Shown: positions 12,549 to 52,157 of the stretch, piece by piece | How positions within the stretch are numbered: the first letter of the stretch is position 1 | Layout: each line of letters starts with the position of its first letter | NCBI GenBank assembly: GCA_903887415.1 | Contig: CAISPO010000001.1 | Span: forward strand, 48,728-112,727 | DNA from: an uncultured Bacteroidota bacterium | GTDB lineage: Bacteria; Bacteroidota; Bacteroidia; Chitinophagales; Chitinophagaceae | Direction: 5' to 3' | Length of the DNA: 64,000 nucleotides | Position numbers and translations under genes: made by a program | Notes under the pieces: generated by a model | The model's input: the letters and a program-made list of their open reading frames with translations, nothing else | Database searches by the model: none | Told to the model about the DNA's origin: nothing

Positions 12549-13442
12549 TCACACGACCTCATCCTCTCCTTTGTCATCCTGAGCTTGTTGAAGGGGGGAT
12601 GGGGCCGTGTCTTGAACGCTCGTCTCATGCAATGCCACTATGGGAATATGGCTTTTGTGAGCCATAGCCGTAGAGTGGCTCTTGTGAAATAATCCTTCAA
12701 AAAAAGAATGTTTACGGGGTATCATGATCAGCCAGTCCACATTATTTTTATCTACAAAATCCGTTATTGCGTTTTCAATATTATTTACATCGTAGATGAT
12801 ATGAAAATGCGGATTTGCCGGGGCCAGGATATTTATTGCTGCCTCATCAATGTCGGTCATATTATCCCGGTTAAAAACATCGATCTGTAGATTCAGCACT
12901 TCCAGTTCAGCGCTGAAAGCCATCGCTATATCCTTTAGCTGGGTGAGGGCTTTTGCATTTCCTTCATGCTTGTTATCAAAGGCCAGGCAGATCTTCTTTA
13001 CAGGCTTAAATACCGCGCCCGGAGGAATAGCCAATACTGGGTATTTCATTAGCCGGAAAGCAGAGATCACAATACTGTCTATCGACGATGCATGTTCAGC
13101 TGCCATGCTGTTGCCCAGCACCACCAGCCAGGGTTCCTGGTTCTGCTCAGAATATTTCTCCAGTGCGCTGATAATATCCCCATCTATTACCGTGCCTTGT
13201 ATATCCAGCGCGGGGTAAGCCTGCTGCAAGTTGTGTACCGTTATTTTCATTTGCCCTTCCGAGTCAGTTTCCACGTCGCTGATGAGGCTCGATGGCATGG
13301 GCACATCGCTGAACATTACCGGGAACAGGAAGGAATGAATAATAACGAGCCGTGCATTTTGAGCTACGGCGAGCTGGCATGCGTAGTGGGTGGCATTTTC
13401 AGCCACTTCCGAAAAATCAGTTGCTGTGACTATCAGTTTCAT
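12549..13442 (-). CDS. Universal stress protein (tandem Usp domains)
   Basis: IVTATDFSEVAENATHYA; PVLAIP; C-terminal PRKHSFFEGLFHKSHS...IPIVALH. Confidence 0.9.
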   Translation of the reverse strand: MKLIVTATDFSEVAENATHYACQLAVAQNARLVIIHSFLFPVMFSDVPMPSSLISDVETDSEGQMKITVHNLQQAYPALDIQGTVIDGDIISALEKYSEQNQEPWLVVLGNSMAAEHASSIDSIVISAFRLMKYPVLAIPPGAVFKPVKKICLAFDNKHEGNAKALTQLKDIAMAFSAELEVLNLQIDVFNRDNMTDIDEAAINILAPANPHFHIIYDVNNIENAITDFVDKNNVDWLIMIPRKHSFFEGLFHKSHSTAMAHKSHIPIVALHETSVQDTAPSPLQQAQDDKGEDEVV

Positions 13443-13574
13443 AAACAGTGTTTTTGTGAAAGATATAAAAAGAATGCCGGTAAACGTAAATACGTGTAAA
13501 TGCCGGGCATATCGTTTATATTTTCCGAAAAAGGGCCGTGAACGAGGAGTAACGGATGCCTAATAATCAACCTT

Positions 13575-13707
13575 TCATTTGGCTTCCCTCTTGAAATTAG
13601 GAAGCACCTGGAGTTTATAGTTCATTGAGGAAGTTATTCAAAGAAGTCGCTTCGCTATCGCCCAAAATTAAATAAATATGCCAAAACCGATTAATTGCTT
13701 TACCCAT
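13575..13707 (-). pseudogene. Remnant of an antitoxin/toxin gene junction
   Basis: ...SLNNFLNEL* overlapping MNYKLQVLPNFKREAK*, resembling the Bacteroidota antitoxin end plus RelE-like toxin start. Confidence 0.45.
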
Positions 13708-13791
13708 GCGGTTTCCGGGCATTTCGACTTATATTCTGCCATTAAGCGATTTTAATAATTCCAATAAATTTGACAAAATATTCCTACCTTA

Positions 13792-15318
13792 GTGTCGTTG
13801 AAGCATAAAAACGACATATTTCAGAACTCAAGTAAGGCTATTAATGGGTCTTTTGTCATGTTTCTGGACATGAACAGTTATTTTGCCAGTTGCGAGCAGC
13901 AGCGGCATCCGGAGCTGCGGGGCAAGCCTTTGGGGGTGCTTACTTACGATAGTCCTAACGCCGCAGTGATCGCTGCATCTAAAGAAGCCAAAATATTTGG
14001 AATTAAGAGCGGCATGCGGCTGGGCGATTGCCGGGCGCTGTGCCCCCAGCTCATCACTACCACAACGCACCCGGCCTGGTACCGGCAGATACATGTGGAT
14101 GTAATGGCCATCCTACGCAGCTACTGTGACGATGTAATACCGAAGAGCATAGACGAGGCGGTAGCCAATTTCAACTCTTACCGGTTGGTGTATGATGATC
14201 TGACGGAAGTGGCCAGTCAGATAAAGGCAGACATAACCGCAAAATATGACTACCTCACTTGCTCCATAGGCATAGCGCCAAATTCTTTCCTGGCCAAGCT
14301 GGGCACAGGGCTGCAGAAAATAGATGGCCTCATCGTGATAACCCCTGAAAATATAGATGGCTACCTGGCTACCCTGAAGCTCACCGACCTGCCGGGTATA
14401 GCCACCAACAATGAGCGCCGCCTGAAAATGATTGGCATCAATAACCCTTTGCAGATGCGGCATTCCTCACCCGCATTGCTGCGCAAGGCGTTTGGCGGGG
14501 TGGTGGGCGACTACTGGCACCGCAGGCTGAATTTTGCCGAGGTAGATATGTATAGCCGTGCAGAGAACCGCACCATGAGCGCCACGCGTACCCTTAGCCG
14601 CCAGCAGAGCCAGAATAGGCAAGTGCTGGAGTCTATGCTCATATCACTGTGCACAAGGCTGGAGCAGCGCATGGTAAAGAGCGAAATGTTTTGCAGGGAG
14701 GTATCTTTCTCCATCAGGTATAAAGATGGTACAAGCTGGGATACGACAGTGAAGCTGGCAGAACCGGTGCAGGATGCTATGGAGCTGATCAGCTATATAA
14801 AGGAGCGGATAGCTGATTATGAGCGCTCACATCATTTGCAGGCCCTGTTCAATGAGCGCGTTACAAATCTTACCGTGGCTATTGCCTCCTTTATGAATGG
14901 CAGGGTGATGCAATACAGCCTGTTTGATAATCGCATGAAAAAAGATACGGTGCGCAAAGTGATGTATGACATAAAGGAGGTGTATGAACAAAATAATATA
15001 GTAAGAAAGGGCTGTGAGCTGATCATCCCGAATGTAATGAAAGATGCCGTAGGCTTCGGCTCTGTAAAAGATATGATAGTGAAGAAAAACGGCGAAGTAA
15101 AAAACAGGCACCTGCTGGAAGAAGACAAACCCGGCCAGCGCAGGATGGCGGCGCTGAAGAAGAAGCCGGTGGTGGAGCAAAAAGAACCCGACTACAACGA
15201 CATTCTCCCAAATGATGAATGGGAAGGAGTGTCATTATTGCAAGGGTTACAACAGCAGAAAAGCAAAGCTGCTCTGGTAGCTAAAGATGAGTATTATTCA
15301 CAAAGCACTCCCCTTTAG
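13792..15318 (+). CDS. dinB: Y-family DNA polymerase (DinB/Pol IV-like); true start may be ATG at 13858
   Basis: FLDMNSYFASCE, SKEAKIFGIKSGM, SIDEA catalytic motif, SIGIAPNSFLAKL, LTDLPGI. Confidence 0.9.
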   Translation: MSLKHKNDIFQNSSKAINGSFVMFLDMNSYFASCEQQRHPELRGKPLGVLTYDSPNAAVIAASKEAKIFGIKSGMRLGDCRALCPQLITTTTHPAWYRQIHVDVMAILRSYCDDVIPKSIDEAVANFNSYRLVYDDLTEVASQIKADITAKYDYLTCSIGIAPNSFLAKLGTGLQKIDGLIVITPENIDGYLATLKLTDLPGIATNNERRLKMIGINNPLQMRHSSPALLRKAFGGVVGDYWHRRLNFAEVDMYSRAENRTMSATRTLSRQQSQNRQVLESMLISLCTRLEQRMVKSEMFCREVSFSIRYKDGTSWDTTVKLAEPVQDAMELISYIKERIADYERSHHLQALFNERVTNLTVAIASFMNGRVMQYSLFDNRMKKDTVRKVMYDIKEVYEQNNIVRKGCELIIPNVMKDAVGFGSVKDMIVKKNGEVKNRHLLEEDKPGQRRMAALKKKPVVEQKEPDYNDILPNDEWEGVSLLQGLQQQKSKAALVAKDEYYSQSTPL

Positions 15319-28395: not shown

Positions 28396-28597
28396 TGTCT
28401 TATATAGAGAGTTGTGATATTTATTGTTTCTTTTCCTATGATTTTTTATTTTTTCCTATATTTCCTGCTATATTTCAGCGAATCACAATGTTGATTTACT
28501 GTTAAGCCATCATTAAGCCGGGGTTAAAAACCTTTCGGGGAGGACGAATGTAAACGGAAATTTGAGGCGCAAACCTTTTTTTAATTCTTTAGTTTTC

Positions 28598-48016: not shown

Positions 48017-48757
48017 ATGCAGGACTTAATAGAAATAGAAGCGGCAAGGCTCAAATCGGTAGCACGATTCAAAGAGTTCGATTTCGACCTGGATAAAAAC
48101 CTGGACGGCATATTAAAACTTGCCGCAGATATTTATGAAACGCCGGTTGCGTTCATTACCCTTATTGATGAGCATGACCAGTGGTTTAAGGTAAAAAGGG
48201 GGTTTGATGTATCACAGATGCCCCGCGCTATATCCTTTTGTACGCACGCAATAATGCATGACGATGTAATGATCGTTCCCGATGCCAGCTTGGACAATCG
48301 CTTTACAAATAATCCGTTAGTGGCAAACGTTCCCAATGTTCGTTTTTATGCAGGCGCTCCGCTTGCAGCCCACGACGGTAATAATATTGGTACCTTATGT
48401 GTGATGGATACCGAGGTAAAGGAGATATCTGAAAATAAAAAAGTGCTGCTGGGAATACTCGCGAAACAAGCCATTCACCTCATGGAACTGGAGCTGACCT
48501 ACAAGATGCTGAATGTGAAAATGCAGCAGGTAGAAACGCAAAATAAAGCCCTCATGGATATAGCCCACATACAGTCGCATGAGTTCAGGGCGCCGCTGTG
48601 CAGCATTATGGGCCTGATGAACATTATTAAGGAAGACAAATACCGTGAGCCATACACCTACCTGGAAATGATGGACGAAGCCATAAGAACGCTGGATGAC
48701 CGGATCCATGCAGTAGTAAGGGGTACAGAAATTGCTAAGAATGCTTACGTTGCTTAG
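48017..48757 (+). CDS. GAF domain protein with HisKA (DHp) but no HATPase domain
   Basis: SFCTHAI, RFYAGAPL, GTLCV GAF motifs; SHEFRAPL H-box; stop shortly afterwards. Confidence 0.85.
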   Translation: MQDLIEIEAARLKSVARFKEFDFDLDKNLDGILKLAADIYETPVAFITLIDEHDQWFKVKRGFDVSQMPRAISFCTHAIMHDDVMIVPDASLDNRFTNNPLVANVPNVRFYAGAPLAAHDGNNIGTLCVMDTEVKEISENKKVLLGILAKQAIHLMELELTYKMLNVKMQQVETQNKALMDIAHIQSHEFRAPLCSIMGLMNIIKEDKYREPYTYLEMMDEAIRTLDDRIHAVVRGTEIAKNAYVA

Positions 48758-48760
48758 CCG

Positions 48761-49531
48761 CTATGATTTGAAAATCTGCTCTAAGACAGATGATAGCCTG
48801 ATACCAGCGATCAGCAATTGCATTTCCACAACTTTTTTGTTCTTGTCTATATATGCCTGGTCTATGGTATCGTCTTTAAAGGCATACACATTAGTGAGCA
48901 GTGAACGCGGTTCATGCGTCCAGTTCTCAACATCTATCTTTTTGAGCCCGTCTATTTCGCTTTTATTGAAATTTTTCAATTGGGCTAAGCAATCGTTCGG
49001 AGTTATTTTTTCGCTTTCAATGATCTCTGTATCCCAAACCCGGTGCAGGTTTGTAGGTTTCCCCAGGTATTTTACATGTATGTCGTTGCCGCCTTTGTCT
49101 TCCTCATAGCCTACGTGCAGCGGCATGTGCAGGTCGCCGGTGAGGTGAAAAATGATCATCAGGTCTTTTTTGATGTCATCCTTGCTCATATTGTCCCTAT
49201 GTTCCAGTTCGGTAATAGCTTTATTGAGGGCATTGATAACGTTGCCATCCTTTGTTTCTGTATATGCCTGGCCTTTTTCAATATTTACATAATGCCACGA
49301 TTTCATATAATCGTAACTGTGGTCGCTGCGCATATCGTCCATCCAGGTGCTTGCTTCTTCTATAGTTGTACTCCCTAGATATTTATGTACTGCATCCTTT
49401 GTGCTGCTATCCAGGAAATGAAAGGCGATCTCAGCTACAATACCATGTCCGATTTTGCCCCAGGCAAAAGAACGTTGGGGCACAGAAATGATGAGCGATA
49501 ACACTACGGCTAATGACAATATTTTTTTCAT
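48761..49531 (-). CDS. S1/P1 nuclease (secreted)
   Basis: Signal peptide then WGKIGH; WMDD; HLTGDLHMPLH; NLHRVWD. Confidence 0.95.
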   Translation of the reverse strand: MKKILSLAVVLSLIISVPQRSFAWGKIGHGIVAEIAFHFLDSSTKDAVHKYLGSTTIEEASTWMDDMRSDHSYDYMKSWHYVNIEKGQAYTETKDGNVINALNKAITELEHRDNMSKDDIKKDLMIIFHLTGDLHMPLHVGYEEDKGGNDIHVKYLGKPTNLHRVWDTEIIESEKITPNDCLAQLKNFNKSEIDGLKKIDVENWTHEPRSLLTNVYAFKDDTIDQAYIDKNKKVVEMQLLIAGIRLSSVLEQIFKS

Positions 49532-49572
49532 GGTTGTAAAACTATATTATACCGCTCATTCGCAATACAGTA

Positions 49573-49591
49573 TAATGTTAATTTATCATTA
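49573..49591 (-). promoter_or_regulatory. 11-bp-spaced direct repeat (TAACATTA-like) upstream of the S1/P1 nuclease gene
   Basis: Plus-strand TAATGTTA 49573 and TATCATTA 49584. Confidence 0.45.
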
Positions 49592-49618
49592 CCGTAAGAC
49601 AGAGCCAAAAGAAAATGA

Positions 49619-49646
49619 AAACCGCCCGGGCTTTACCAGGCGGTTT
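49619..49646 (-). terminator. Intrinsic terminator of the 49667-50590 gene
   Basis: aaaccgcc...ggcggttt stem; A-run on the plus strand gives a U-tract on the minus strand. Confidence 0.7.
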
Positions 49647-49666
49647 ATGTAAACATTATAGGATCT

Positions 49667-50590
49667 TTATTGTTTTACAAATTTCAGCGGGGTTACCTGC
49701 CCGGTATTTTTTTCCCTAATATTAATATAGTAATTCCCTGTTGCAAATGACGCCGTATTTATCGAGAACTGCTTGCCTGACTGTATTCCTTTGTACACAG
49801 TCTGTCCAGCGGCATCGGTTATATTAACCCACTTGGTGCCTTCTGCAGTTCCGGTAATATCAATGTTGTTGACAACCGGATTAGGGAATAATGTATATAC
49901 TGTTGTTACTTGCGAAACTGATGCAATAGCAGTGGTGCTGTGGCTGGTGTCTGTAACGCTGTCAGCATAAACAGTTATGTTATCATAACGGTCATTGCCG
50001 GAAGTGCCGGTATCGCCAATGGCAAAGTTGATCTGCACCTTGAAGTGGGGGTTATTGTTAGTCAGCGTGTCAGAAGAAAAATTAAAAGTCTCTAATTGAA
50101 AAGCATTGCTAACAGTATCCGTAGAATCAACATAATAAGTCGCAGAAGCGCTGATCGCAGTATTTATCCAGGTAGTGCCATCAACTGTATAAGTAACAAT
50201 ATTCTGCTGCGAGCCTTTTTTAGTACGCTCTACAGCGTAGGCAAGCACTATATTTTTATACCCTGTAGTTGGTATAGTGATCGTAAACGGGCCGGATGCA
50301 GGGTTGCGCAGGCGCAGAGCGGCTGCACCTGCACCTAAAGTGGTGCCATCGGCCCCAACTCCGTTAAGTGTTGTGCCTGATTGTACGGTGTCATAGTATG
50401 CGCCGGAATAGGAAAGGCCCGCGCCAGCTACTAATGAAGATGTTGGTGTCAGTGCGTCTGCAGAATCAACATTAAAATTCCAATAGTGTATCAGTGTCTG
50501 GGCTCCACTTTCCGATTTGAAAGCCAGCATTGCTCCAATGCAAAATAATAGAGTAAGTACATTTTTTTTCATAAAAGATATTTTGTGCAA
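49667..50590 (-). CDS. T9SS type A sorting domain-containing surface protein
   Basis: Signal peptide; C-terminal LFPNPV...ITDAAGQ...GNYYINI...FVKQ. Confidence 0.88.
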   Translation of the reverse strand: MHKISFMKKNVLTLLFCIGAMLAFKSESGAQTLIHYWNFNVDSADALTPTSSLVAGAGLSYSGAYYDTVQSGTTLNGVGADGTTLGAGAAALRLRNPASGPFTITIPTTGYKNIVLAYAVERTKKGSQQNIVTYTVDGTTWINTAISASATYYVDSTDTVSNAFQLETFNFSSDTLTNNNPHFKVQINFAIGDTGTSGNDRYDNITVYADSVTDTSHSTTAIASVSQVTTVYTLFPNPVVNNIDITGTAEGTKWVNITDAAGQTVYKGIQSGKQFSINTASFATGNYYINIREKNTGQVTPLKFVKQ

Positions 50591-50601
50591 AGGAATATCT
50601 C

Positions 50602-50710
50602 TAATGTTATGAGAATATTACGTAAACGTTAAGGAAAGATTGTGTAACAGCCCGCATAAAATGCAAAATGGCACAGAAGATAACACTATCTTAATGTTAA
50701 GGTAACATTG
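50602..50710. promoter_or_regulatory. Two arrays of 11-bp periodic repeats in the divergent promoter region
   Basis: TAATGTTA/GAATATTA/AAACGTTA at 50602/50613/50624; TAACACTA/TAATGTTA/TAACATTG at 50681/50692/50703. Confidence 0.5.
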
Positions 50711-50810
50711 GGTGCAGACTTTTTCGCTCGTTTGCCAATGTATCTTTACGGCTTCATTATTATTTTGACCCGGCTCCCAAGCGAAGCCTTTCAATACACT
50801 TTTCTATAAA

Positions 50811-52157
50811 ATGACTATAAAACTACCTGGATATAAAGCGCTGCTGCTCACTAGCGCCTTATTCATCGCTAACTATTGTTTTGCACAGCAAGATACACTT
50901 CGCCTCCTGTCTTATAATGTCCTTTACCTCGGCGACAACCCGCCATGCCAGGCCGCGCACAGCACAATGGAGGGATACCTGGAGACTGTTGTAGCCTATG
51001 CTAATCCTGATATTGCTGGGTTTGTAAAAATGGAGGCGATGGATGCGTCTGGAACAGCGCCTGCCCAATTTGCTGATTCGATATTGCAGGACATTTTTAA
51101 TGCCGCATACCCGGGGCGATATGCCTATTGCCCGTCCACCAATGTATCGTCTGCAGACAATATATCCATGTTATTTTACGACCAGCAGAAACTCGGTTTT
51201 GTAAATGTGCTCTGCACGTATTCCTATATTACCGACTTCGACACTTACAAGCTCTATTACAAGACGGCTAACCTCGCCACAACCCACGACAGTATCTTTT
51301 TATATGTAACCCTGAACCATACAGAATCAGGGAGTGGAAGCAGTGATGCGGCTACCAGGGGTGTGCAAATAGGAGGAGAGATGGCACAAATAGAAACACA
51401 TTTCACAACCCTGCCAAATATGGTGAATATGGGCGATTTCAATGTGCACAACAGCACGGAGGCCTGTTACCAGGCTCTTGTAGCGCCAACTAATCTTAAC
51501 TATCGCTATTATGATCCTCCCTTTTATCCCGATGCTCTTTTTTCTTACCCGGCAGACTGGGACAATAACCCTGGTGATTACGCTTATTATCTTACAACAA
51601 GCACAAGAACGGGTAGTTCACCAAATGAGTGCAGCAATGATTTTGGTGGCGGAAAATCATGGTACGACCATATTTTCCTGTCTTCAAATATCATCAATAA
51701 ATCAGACCATATCAGCTATCTGCCACATTCTTTCCATGTAATCGGCAATGACGGCGACAGGCTAGGGGTACCAGTGATAGGCCCGCCGGCTAATGTATCT
51801 GCGCCCGCAGCAGTGATCAATAGCATTTACCAGATATCGCAGCACTACCCGGTGACATTAGACCTGCTTGTAGATACTTCTGCTGTCACCTCTGCAAATA
51901 TGGTTAGCAAGGAAGAGAAAGTAACCGTAACTAACCCGGTTGAAAAGGAACTTACAATGAGATTCCCCACCAGCCTGGTGGGCAAAACCATAACTGTTCA
52001 ATGCATGGATATGTTAGGTCGTATGCAGATGAAAAGCACATTTGTGTTAACCGGTGAACTGGAACGAATACCCTGCACATTGATGCCCGGTATCTATTAC
52101 TTAGCTATATCTGCAGATGGTGAGCAGGTTTCAAAAAGGATCGTCACAAAGGAATAG
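50811..52157 (+). CDS. T9SS-secreted endonuclease/exonuclease/phosphatase (EEP) fold protein
   Basis: LLSYNV, NHT, MGDFN, YDHIF; C-terminal NPV...DMLGR...PGIYYL...KRIVTK T9SS domain. Confidence 0.8.
   Translation: MTIKLPGYKALLLTSALFIANYCFAQQDTLRLLSYNVLYLGDNPPCQAAHSTMEGYLETVVAYANPDIAGFVKMEAMDASGTAPAQFADSILQDIFNAAYPGRYAYCPSTNVSSADNISMLFYDQQKLGFVNVLCTYSYITDFDTYKLYYKTANLATTHDSIFLYVTLNHTESGSGSSDAATRGVQIGGEMAQIETHFTTLPNMVNMGDFNVHNSTEACYQALVAPTNLNYRYYDPPFYPDALFSYPADWDNNPGDYAYYLTTSTRTGSSPNECSNDFGGGKSWYDHIFLSSNIINKSDHISYLPHSFHVIGNDGDRLGVPVIGPPANVSAPAAVINSIYQISQHYPVTLDLLVDTSAVTSANMVSKEEKVTVTNPVEKELTMRFPTSLVGKTITVQCMDMLGRMQMKSTFVLTGELERIPCTLMPGIYYLAISADGEQVSKRIVTKE

Follow-up and report, generated by a model that had tools for sequence, protein, structure and literature searches.

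A candidate Pho-box regulon for extracellular nucleic-acid scavenging in a Chitinophagaceae genome from lake water

Genes and repeat arrays of the locus

We analyzed a 64-kb stretch of DNA, hereafter the window (positions 48,728 to 112,727 of contig CAISPO010000001.1, assembly GCA_903887415.1), from an uncultured bacterium of the Chitinophagaceae (Bacteroidota), a Chitinophagales metagenome-assembled genome (MAG) derived from lake-water metagenomes. A first-pass annotation, made from the sequence alone, had proposed that three neighboring genes in the window form a phosphate-starvation regulon marked by short promoter repeats with an 11-bp period. These genes encode a secreted S1/P1 nuclease, a 301-aa protein exported by the type IX secretion system (T9SS), and a 448-aa protein with a predicted endonuclease/exonuclease/phosphatase (EEP) fold. 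Transcript evidence sought for the region returned matches in only four runs, all of them DNA from lake-water metagenomes.

The nuclease gene (48761..49531, minus strand) encodes 256 aa that match PF02265 over the full length of the profile (positions 1-258 of 258; E 2.4e-55; 188.6 bits against a curated cut-off of 29.5), in agreement with the S1/P1 identity given by the first-pass annotation. A signal peptide is followed by Trp-Gly at the predicted mature N-terminus, and the closest of 796 homologues found at E ≤ 1e-20 belong to Chitinophagales MAGs. Upstream on the same strand, the gene for the 301-aa protein (P0002; 49667..50572) specifies a signal peptide, a beta-sandwich at about residues 26-205 and a T9SS type A C-terminal domain at 228-301. 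The 448-aa protein (P0001) is encoded divergently (50811..52157, plus strand) and comprises a signal peptide, the EEP domain at about 28-355 and a C-terminal beta-sandwich predicted by AlphaFold at 375-447. T9SS sorting, proposed earlier for both proteins, is borne out for the 301-aa protein (35.6 bits with TIGR04183, cut-off 23; 38.2 with PF18962, cut-off 27) and is borderline for the 448-aa protein, whose tail lies below both cut-offs (22.7 and 20.2 bits, respectively) and many of whose homologues carry PF18962.

The gene for the 301-aa protein ends in a strong hairpin resembling an intrinsic terminator (49619..49646, minus strand; 11 pairs, 7 of them G-C, tail TCATTTTCTT). Because this hairpin stands between the gene and the nuclease gene, the latter should have its own promoter, and the locus would thus contain three: one for the nuclease, and two placed back to back in the 236-bp gap 50573-50810.

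Each of the three promoters contains units of the form TAAyrTTn at an exact 11-bp period (49573-49591, 50602-50631 and 50681-50710), and no others at this period occur in the window. Read on the window strand, the units are TAATGTTA at 49573 and TATCATTA at 49584 for the nuclease; TAATGTTA at 50602, GAATATTA at 50613 and AAACGTTA at 50624 for the 301-aa protein; and TAACACTA at 50681, TAATGTTA at 50692 and TAACATTG at 50703 for the 448-aa protein. In gene orientation, the nuclease site (49573..49591, minus strand) consists of two strong units, TAATGATA-aat-TAACATTA, with a dimer score of 18.6. The array of the 301-aa protein gene (50602..50642, minus strand) reads (CAATCTTT)-cct-TAACGTTT-acg-TAATATTC-tca-TAACATTA, that is, three strong units and a weak distal fourth, with a triple score of 31.8, and that of the 448-aa protein gene (50681..50710, plus strand) reads TAACACTA-tct-TAATGTTA-agg-TAACATTG, with a triple score of 30.2. 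A position weight matrix (PWM) was built from the units of the window and of its closest relative found, designated L006. The unit consensus is TAAC/T-A/G-TT-n, with 8 bp per unit and 3-bp linkers, so that one unit falls on each turn of the DNA and the units point at the gene. Two or more direct repeats of about 8 conserved bp with a 3-bp linker, at a period of 11 bp, are what characterizes a Pho box.

Such repeats might be a chance product of AT-rich promoter DNA with no regulatory role, and the AT-rich composition of the units would suit this explanation. We therefore scored TAAnnTTA pairs at spacings of 8-15 bp over the full window. Spacing 11 had four pairs, all within the three promoters; of the remaining spacings, only 14 had any, a single pair. 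First-order Markov simulations gave a mean of 0.34 and a maximum of 3 pairs at spacing 11, and none of 1000 simulations reached the observed four; a 19-bp version of the pattern had 4 matches in the window against 0.62 expected. Because of the simulations and the excess of four pairs over 0.34, we excluded a chance origin. The 11-bp spacing and the unit positions reported in the first-pass annotation were confirmed in the sequence, with phasing that is non-random by simulation.

Every unit nearly equals its own reverse complement, and the direction of the repeats therefore cannot be read from the window alone. The earlier description of direct repeats, largely oriented with their genes, accordingly needs more than the window to support it, and it holds through the comparison of genomes described below, from which we took the direction. 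This near self-complementarity also raises a different explanation, in which TAATGTTA-N3-TAACATTA would be a palindromic site recognized by a Zur-, Fur- or DeoR-type repressor acting as a dimer, with 11 bp as the distance between half-site centers. In its favor, the sequence at 50692-50710 forms an almost perfect inverted repeat of 19 bp, S1/P1 nucleases are zinc enzymes, and the half-site AATGTTA is similar both to the Zur box of enterobacteria and to the DeoR operator with its TGTTA...TAACA.

The pattern upstream of phosphate genes

We scanned a set of about 185,000 genomes, one per species, for exact matches to the 29-bp pattern TAAC-N7-TAATRTT-N4-TAACATT, which fits all four triples of the window and L006. 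At least 119 loci were found; the counts that follow, including those of neighboring families, are among the matches listed. The sites are mostly intergenic (8 of 120 lie within a long open reading frame [ORF]), and the loci belong to Bacteroidota (56), Bacillota (30), Ignavibacteriota (6), Nitrospirota (6) and Desulfobacterota (4), among others. A phosphorus gene adjoins the site in 49 of 119 loci: 31 of 56 in Bacteroidota, 6 of 6 in both Ignavibacteriota and Nitrospirota, and 1 of 30 in Bacillota. The motif points to the phosphorus gene in 44 loci, and in 5 the phosphorus gene lies only on the opposite side.

Flanking genes were clustered and the neighbor families named by Pfam and NCBIfam. 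The most frequent was a TonB receptor with the domains CarbopepD_reg_2, Plug and OMP_b-brl_3 (15 loci), the same three as in Fjoh_0545, followed by a divergent family of about 430 aa (10 loci) that is linked to Porin_O_P via one member. PstS was found at 9 loci in two clusters, with one representative of each identified by TIGR00975 (360 bits against 205) and TIGR02136 (320 against 207). Porin_O_P accounted for 6 loci and PhoU_div for 2. Single loci had alkaline phosphatase (PhoA), the ornithine-lipid synthase OlsF (705 bits against a cut-off of 620), an endonuclease I with a T9SS tail, a metallophosphoesterase (Metallophos), a PhoB-like regulator, a homologue of the 301-aa protein, and an ABC ATPase that is a candidate PstB. 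Many arrays carry a fourth unit. An independent scan of metagenome contigs found the same gene families downstream, together with another three genes, orthologous or homologous to that of the 301-aa protein, that face a phytase-like gene; two of these loci (L180 and L211) have exact triples on both strands, with an exact pattern match upstream of the orthologue of the 301-aa protein gene. Thus, in other genomes and in L006, the pattern stands upstream of core phosphate genes (pstS, porin, phoA, phoB). The enrichment at phosphorus-acquisition genes that would be expected of the proposed regulon was found across species, and phosphate as the signal, which the first-pass annotation had deduced from the enzyme types, gains support from these targets in several phyla.

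The orientation and the targets bear on the palindromic operator. The arrays comprise three or four units, not two, the heads run TAAC/TAAT/TAAC towards the gene in every triple, phosphorus genes lie on the side to which the motif points (44 loci against 5), and it is phosphate genes that are targeted, not genes for zinc or deoxynucleosides. A Zur-, Fur- or DeoR-like site was dropped on the grounds of unit number, constant order and targets, and we regard it as very improbable.

The 29-mer also defined the geometry of the promoters. Of 38 TTTG occurrences following the 29-mer in Bacteroidota, 27 start at an offset of 11, 22, 33 or 44, which places the end of the last unit 10 nt upstream of the TTTG in the -7 element. 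The promoter of the 301-aa protein gene obeys this rule exactly: its last unit TAACATTA is followed by gagatattcc and then the TTTG of the -7 element TTCCTTTG (50588..50595, minus strand). In the promoter of the 448-aa protein gene, a -7-like GACTTTTT (50717-50724, plus strand) has TTTT 10 nt after the last unit. The upstream promoter element is thus occupied at a fixed distance from the downstream one, as in a Pho box, and judged by this placement the array apparently takes the place of the Bacteroidota -33 element. Its position there, at a fixed 10 nt, argues for activation by an OmpR-family protein bound in tandem and not for repression by a symmetric dimer. Together with the 11-bp arrays, their gene-directed orientation and the phosphate-gene targets, these features are consistent with the PhoB/OmpR-type operator proposed at the outset.

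In L006, whose nuclease is 72% identical to that of the window, the layout is the same. Its divergent region, ahead of the orthologous T9SS gene, contains two triples in which the 8-bp units are conserved and the 3-bp linkers differ from those of the window. The site orthologous to the array of the 301-aa protein gene reads TAACATCT-ggg-TAATATTC-cct-TAACATTA. The second, homologous to the promoter of the 448-aa protein gene, reads TAACCTTG-agg-TAATATTC-cgg-TAACATTG ... GACTTTCG and precedes a four-gene operon encoding a phytase-like/SdiA-regulated protein, a Porin_O_P phosphate porin, a 214-aa protein and a 467-aa T9SS protein. In L006, the nuclease gene is followed by one for PPK2. In the window, a 246-aa ORF (48017-48757) with a GAF domain and a partial HisKA match, without an ATPase domain, is convergent with the nuclease gene, and in relatives a PPK2 polyphosphate kinase gene occupies its place.

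This conservation completes the case on chance. In its favor, besides composition, 29 of the 30 low-GC Bacillota matches have no phosphate gene nearby, many of them with T-rich linkers; the Bacillota linkers are mostly of this kind, and most Bacillota matches look like chance. One Bacillota match (L037) precedes an alkaline phosphatase gene. Against it, sites were kept with changed linkers in L006, L180 and L211, they are phased with the -7 box, and phosphate genes are strongly enriched beside the pattern. We assign chance a negligible probability for the arrays of the window.

Several observations weigh against phosphate control of all three genes. Among the three sites, that of the nuclease is the weakest, with only two good units followed by two degenerate units in phase. 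No -7 box lies at the canonical 10 nt from the two good units, and the promoter fits the rule only if the degenerate units are counted, 10 nt after which a -7-like TAGTTTTA with TTTA is found (49536-49543, minus strand). The nuclease site of L006 is poorly kept, only the TAAC/TAAT heads remaining. At the nuclease loci of three more distant relatives (L007-L009), there is no Pho box and the PWM found no strong triple; a different motif, TAAC-N2-TAAC-N1-TAAY, is present instead, and Pho control of the nuclease would therefore be specific to the lineage of the window. Among homologous clusters in a further four genomes (L129-L132), the PWM likewise found no strong triple, which counts against the proposal for L129 and L130. 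The promoters of L129-L132 have weaker or oppositely oriented TAACA units, and in the P0001/P0002 cluster of L129 and L130 TAACAC units face the other way; either the PWM is too narrow or regulation may differ in these genomes. Finally, an OmpR-type regulator and a PorY-family kinase adjoin the cluster in L129 and L130.

This last point suggests another explanation, in which the arrays of the window would be bound by a different OmpR-family regulator, a paralogue of PhoB that answers envelope or secretion status or a substrate signal, such as the regulator paired with the PorY-family kinase beside the homologous cluster in other Chitinophagaceae. The L129/L130 regulator has PhoB as its best match at 181 bits, below the cut-off of 296, the kinase matches its family at 404 bits against a cut-off of 350, and tandem binding at 11 bp is common to OmpR-family paralogues. 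On the other hand, the identical 29-bp pattern stands upstream of pstS, Porin_O_P, phoA, olsF and PhoU-like genes in several phyla, a distribution that marks the phosphate regulator itself, and L129 and L130 lack a strong triple, so that their local regulator may use other sites. We consider a paralogue improbable and retain PhoB as the likely binder. The kinase and regulator genes follow the TonB receptor/EEP/T9SS cluster (L129, 13482-15406; L130, 13673-15603), and the pair may be a two-component system dedicated to that cluster.

The nuclease genes of L007-L009 sit in larger loci for nucleic-acid utilization, with PLD-like and EEP nucleases, a TonB receptor, DUF5689, a nucleoside transporter and cytidine deaminase. 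Tightly spaced TAAC/TAAT words (TTAAC-ga-TAAC-a-TAAY) occur at L007 11887-12070, L008 12317-12495 and 9877-10003, and L009 16841-17020 and 9889-10003, and are common to the promoters of the S1/P1 nuclease, the PLD-like nuclease and the EEP/TonB receptor/DUF5689 genes. These words likely reflect a second regulator of the nucleic-acid utilization loci in these genomes.

Two undescribed exported protein families

Searches with the 448-aa protein against Pfam (including PF03372 and PF19580) and NCBIfam gave no match besides the T9SS tail, and neither this protein nor the 301-aa protein matched anything in the PDB by sequence. The AlphaFold model of the 448-aa protein (predicted local distance difference test [pLDDT] 87.6) has the four-layer alpha/beta sandwich of the EEP superfamily, and the top Foldseek matches are EEP enzymes: 4ruw with E 2e-15, and also DNase I, TDP2 and nocturnin. 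There were 104 PDB matches at E ≤ 0.001, the top ones with template modeling (TM) scores, normalized to target length, of about 0.7. The EEP fold asserted in the first-pass annotation was thus recovered through structure prediction only, as no sequence profile detects it, and the model identifies the protein as an EEP-fold member.

Residues N169/H170, D209/N211 and D286/H287 are invariant among relatives of the 448-aa protein, and N36 is present in 61 of 64. Position 72 is less favorable to an active enzyme: following strand 2, it is taken by us to be the metal-binding Glu of the usual EEP motif, and it is Glu in 47 of 64 relatives and Val in the window protein, which has Glu at 75. More than 500 homologues were found, all of them unnamed, and the T9SS tail is the only domain recognized in any of them. 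Judged from the model, the 448-aa protein is probably a T9SS-exported EEP-fold phosphodiesterase of an undescribed family.

The 301-aa protein was also without a Pfam or NCBIfam match besides its T9SS tail, and its structure gave a generic jelly-roll only: in Foldseek, the AlphaFold model (pLDDT 89.2; beta-sandwich at residues 26-205) weakly matched sugar-binding domains with a jelly-roll fold from GH2 and ENGase enzymes. The 146 homologues of the protein show four architectures: a form of about 300 aa with a T9SS tail, a stand-alone form of about 215 aa, one of about 386 aa, and one of about 490 aa that includes He_PIG. The 214-aa protein in the four-gene operon of L006 is homologous to the N-terminal domain of the window protein, and in Fulvivirga and Pedobacter the 386-aa form is encoded by the first gene of phytase-like/Porin_O_P operons. 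In both Chitinophagaceae MMS25-I14 and Taibaiella soli, homologues of P0001 and P0002 lie side by side in a TonB-receptor cluster, in the order TonB receptor, 457-aa protein, EEP protein, T9SS protein, propeller, OmpR-type regulator and kinase. By these gene contexts, the beta-sandwich domain family is consistently tied to phosphate-porin operons and Pho boxes. Binding of nucleic acids or phosphoesters by the 301-aa protein, as suggested in the first-pass annotation, would be a hypothetical function.

We tentatively suggest, as a possibility that we hold to be less probable than not, that the beta-sandwich is a surface module capturing substrates for phosphorus scavenging, working with phosphate-selective porins, phytase-like proteins and secreted phosphodiesterases, and that the 448-aa protein is the founder of an EEP family of more than 500 members for extracellular phosphodiester breakdown under PhoB.

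The divergent family of 430-450 aa, which has no Pfam or NCBIfam match, is among the commonest downstream of the pattern and often faces a PhoU_div (DUF47) gene (L026, L031, L060, L068, L105, L106, L115, and L009 at 12700-13992). It is probably a divergent phosphate porin, because BLAST links it to a member with a weak Porin_O_P match.

Proposed regulation and relation to known phosphate operators

We propose that, upon phosphate starvation, the phosphorylated PhoB orthologue, a winged-helix response regulator of the OmpR family, would bind each array head-to-tail and recruit RNA polymerase. The induced set would comprise the secreted S1/P1 nuclease, the T9SS-exported EEP-fold phosphodiesterase and the T9SS-exported beta-sandwich protein, the last two of undescribed families, and the three products together would degrade extracellular nucleic acids or other phosphodiesters for their phosphorus. 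To this explanation as a whole, that is, Pho boxes on three promoters, activation by PhoB at low inorganic phosphate (Pi), and scavenging of nucleic acids or phosphodiesters, we give a probability of about 85%. On sequence evidence, the three neighboring genes are very probably induced jointly, as a means of obtaining phosphorus from nucleic acids outside the cell, and the locus qualifies as a candidate Pho-box regulon that is real and conserved, with a textbook mechanism and an operator of a known type. We infer the identity of the binder as PhoB, activation rather than repression, low Pi as the signal here, and the substrates of both new families.

The core binding site of Bacillus subtilis PhoP consists of TT(A/T/C)ACA direct repeats with an 11-bp period. 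The arrays described here are similar in the core word (T)TAACA, in the tandem repeats one helical turn apart and in the proposed OmpR-family regulator of phosphate starvation. They differ in the conserved 8-bp unit TAAyrTTn with alternating TAAC/TAAT heads, and in the Bacteroidota -33/-7 promoter, in which they end 10 nt before TTTG.

Cyanobacterial SphR recognizes three or more 8-bp CTTAACCT repeats with 3-bp linkers; four such repeats precede phoA-nucH, which encodes an extracellular nuclease (PMC1906773). The two systems have in common the 8+3 bp geometry, the three or four units, the TTAAC core, and joint control of phosphate uptake genes and an extracellular nuclease, whereas the arrays here have ATT instead of CT after TAAC, and the phylum and the promoter type differ. 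Pho boxes of Escherichia coli likewise consist of 8-bp repeats with 3-bp linkers, placed 10 bp upstream of the -10 element (PMC1906773). In both cases, tandem repeats of 11 bp replace the upstream element at a fixed 10 bp from the downstream one, although the unit sequence is unrelated to the CTGTCAT-type repeats of E. coli.

Within the Bacteroidota, Pi depletion of Flavobacterium johnsoniae induces extracellular nucleases and T9SS proteins of unknown function, with the TonB receptor Fjoh_0545 among the proteins most strongly induced (PMC8115612). A TonB receptor with the same three Pfam domains is the commonest target of our motif; the nuclease of F. johnsoniae differs, being an endonuclease I with LTD/fn3 domains and not an S1/P1 enzyme. 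That report gives no operator sequence ('Pho box' and 'promoter' have 0 occurrences), and in Bacteroides fragilis PhoB is required genetically for pstC expression at low Pi (PMC3547664). No published Pho box sequence for Bacteroidota was found in the searchable literature.

Bacteroidota are major mineralizers of organic phosphorus in soils, the rhizosphere and lakes, and the regulon by which they respond to phosphate starvation has to date been delineated only through omics. With a Pho-box pattern at a fixed place relative to the -7 box, Pho regulons could be read directly from MAGs, and phosphate-responsive promoter parts would become available for the phylum. The pattern would also assign three uncharacterized families to phosphorus acquisition: the EEP-fold T9SS enzymes, the beta-sandwich proteins of T9SS and OprP operons, and the divergent porin-like proteins of about 430 aa. 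The main gain is in annotation and in a usable operator pattern for the phylum, rather than in a new principle. In a broader form, the TAAC-type Pho box may be a single operator code common to Bacteroidota, Ignavibacteriota, Nitrospirota, some Desulfobacterota, Bacillota and cyanobacteria.

Two further sets of sites were observed. At four loci (L073, L056, L093 and L204), a gene for a 270-aa PhyH-family dioxygenase lies 30 bp downstream of an identical Pho-box match; these come from Sediminibacterium and Chitinophagaceae MAGs, and two records are labeled Caulobacter and Rhizobium, probably through binning errors. In the window itself, a four-unit array phased at 11 bp, TAACCCCG-gct-TAATGATG-gct-TAACAGTA-aat-CAACATTG (28486-28526, minus strand), lies about 100 nt upstream of dnaB and points at it. 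The homologous dnaB promoter of a Taibaiella MAG (L108) has an exact match to the pattern, TAACCTTC-cag-TAATATTT-gaa-TAACATT, which suggests that phosphate control of the replicative helicase is possible.

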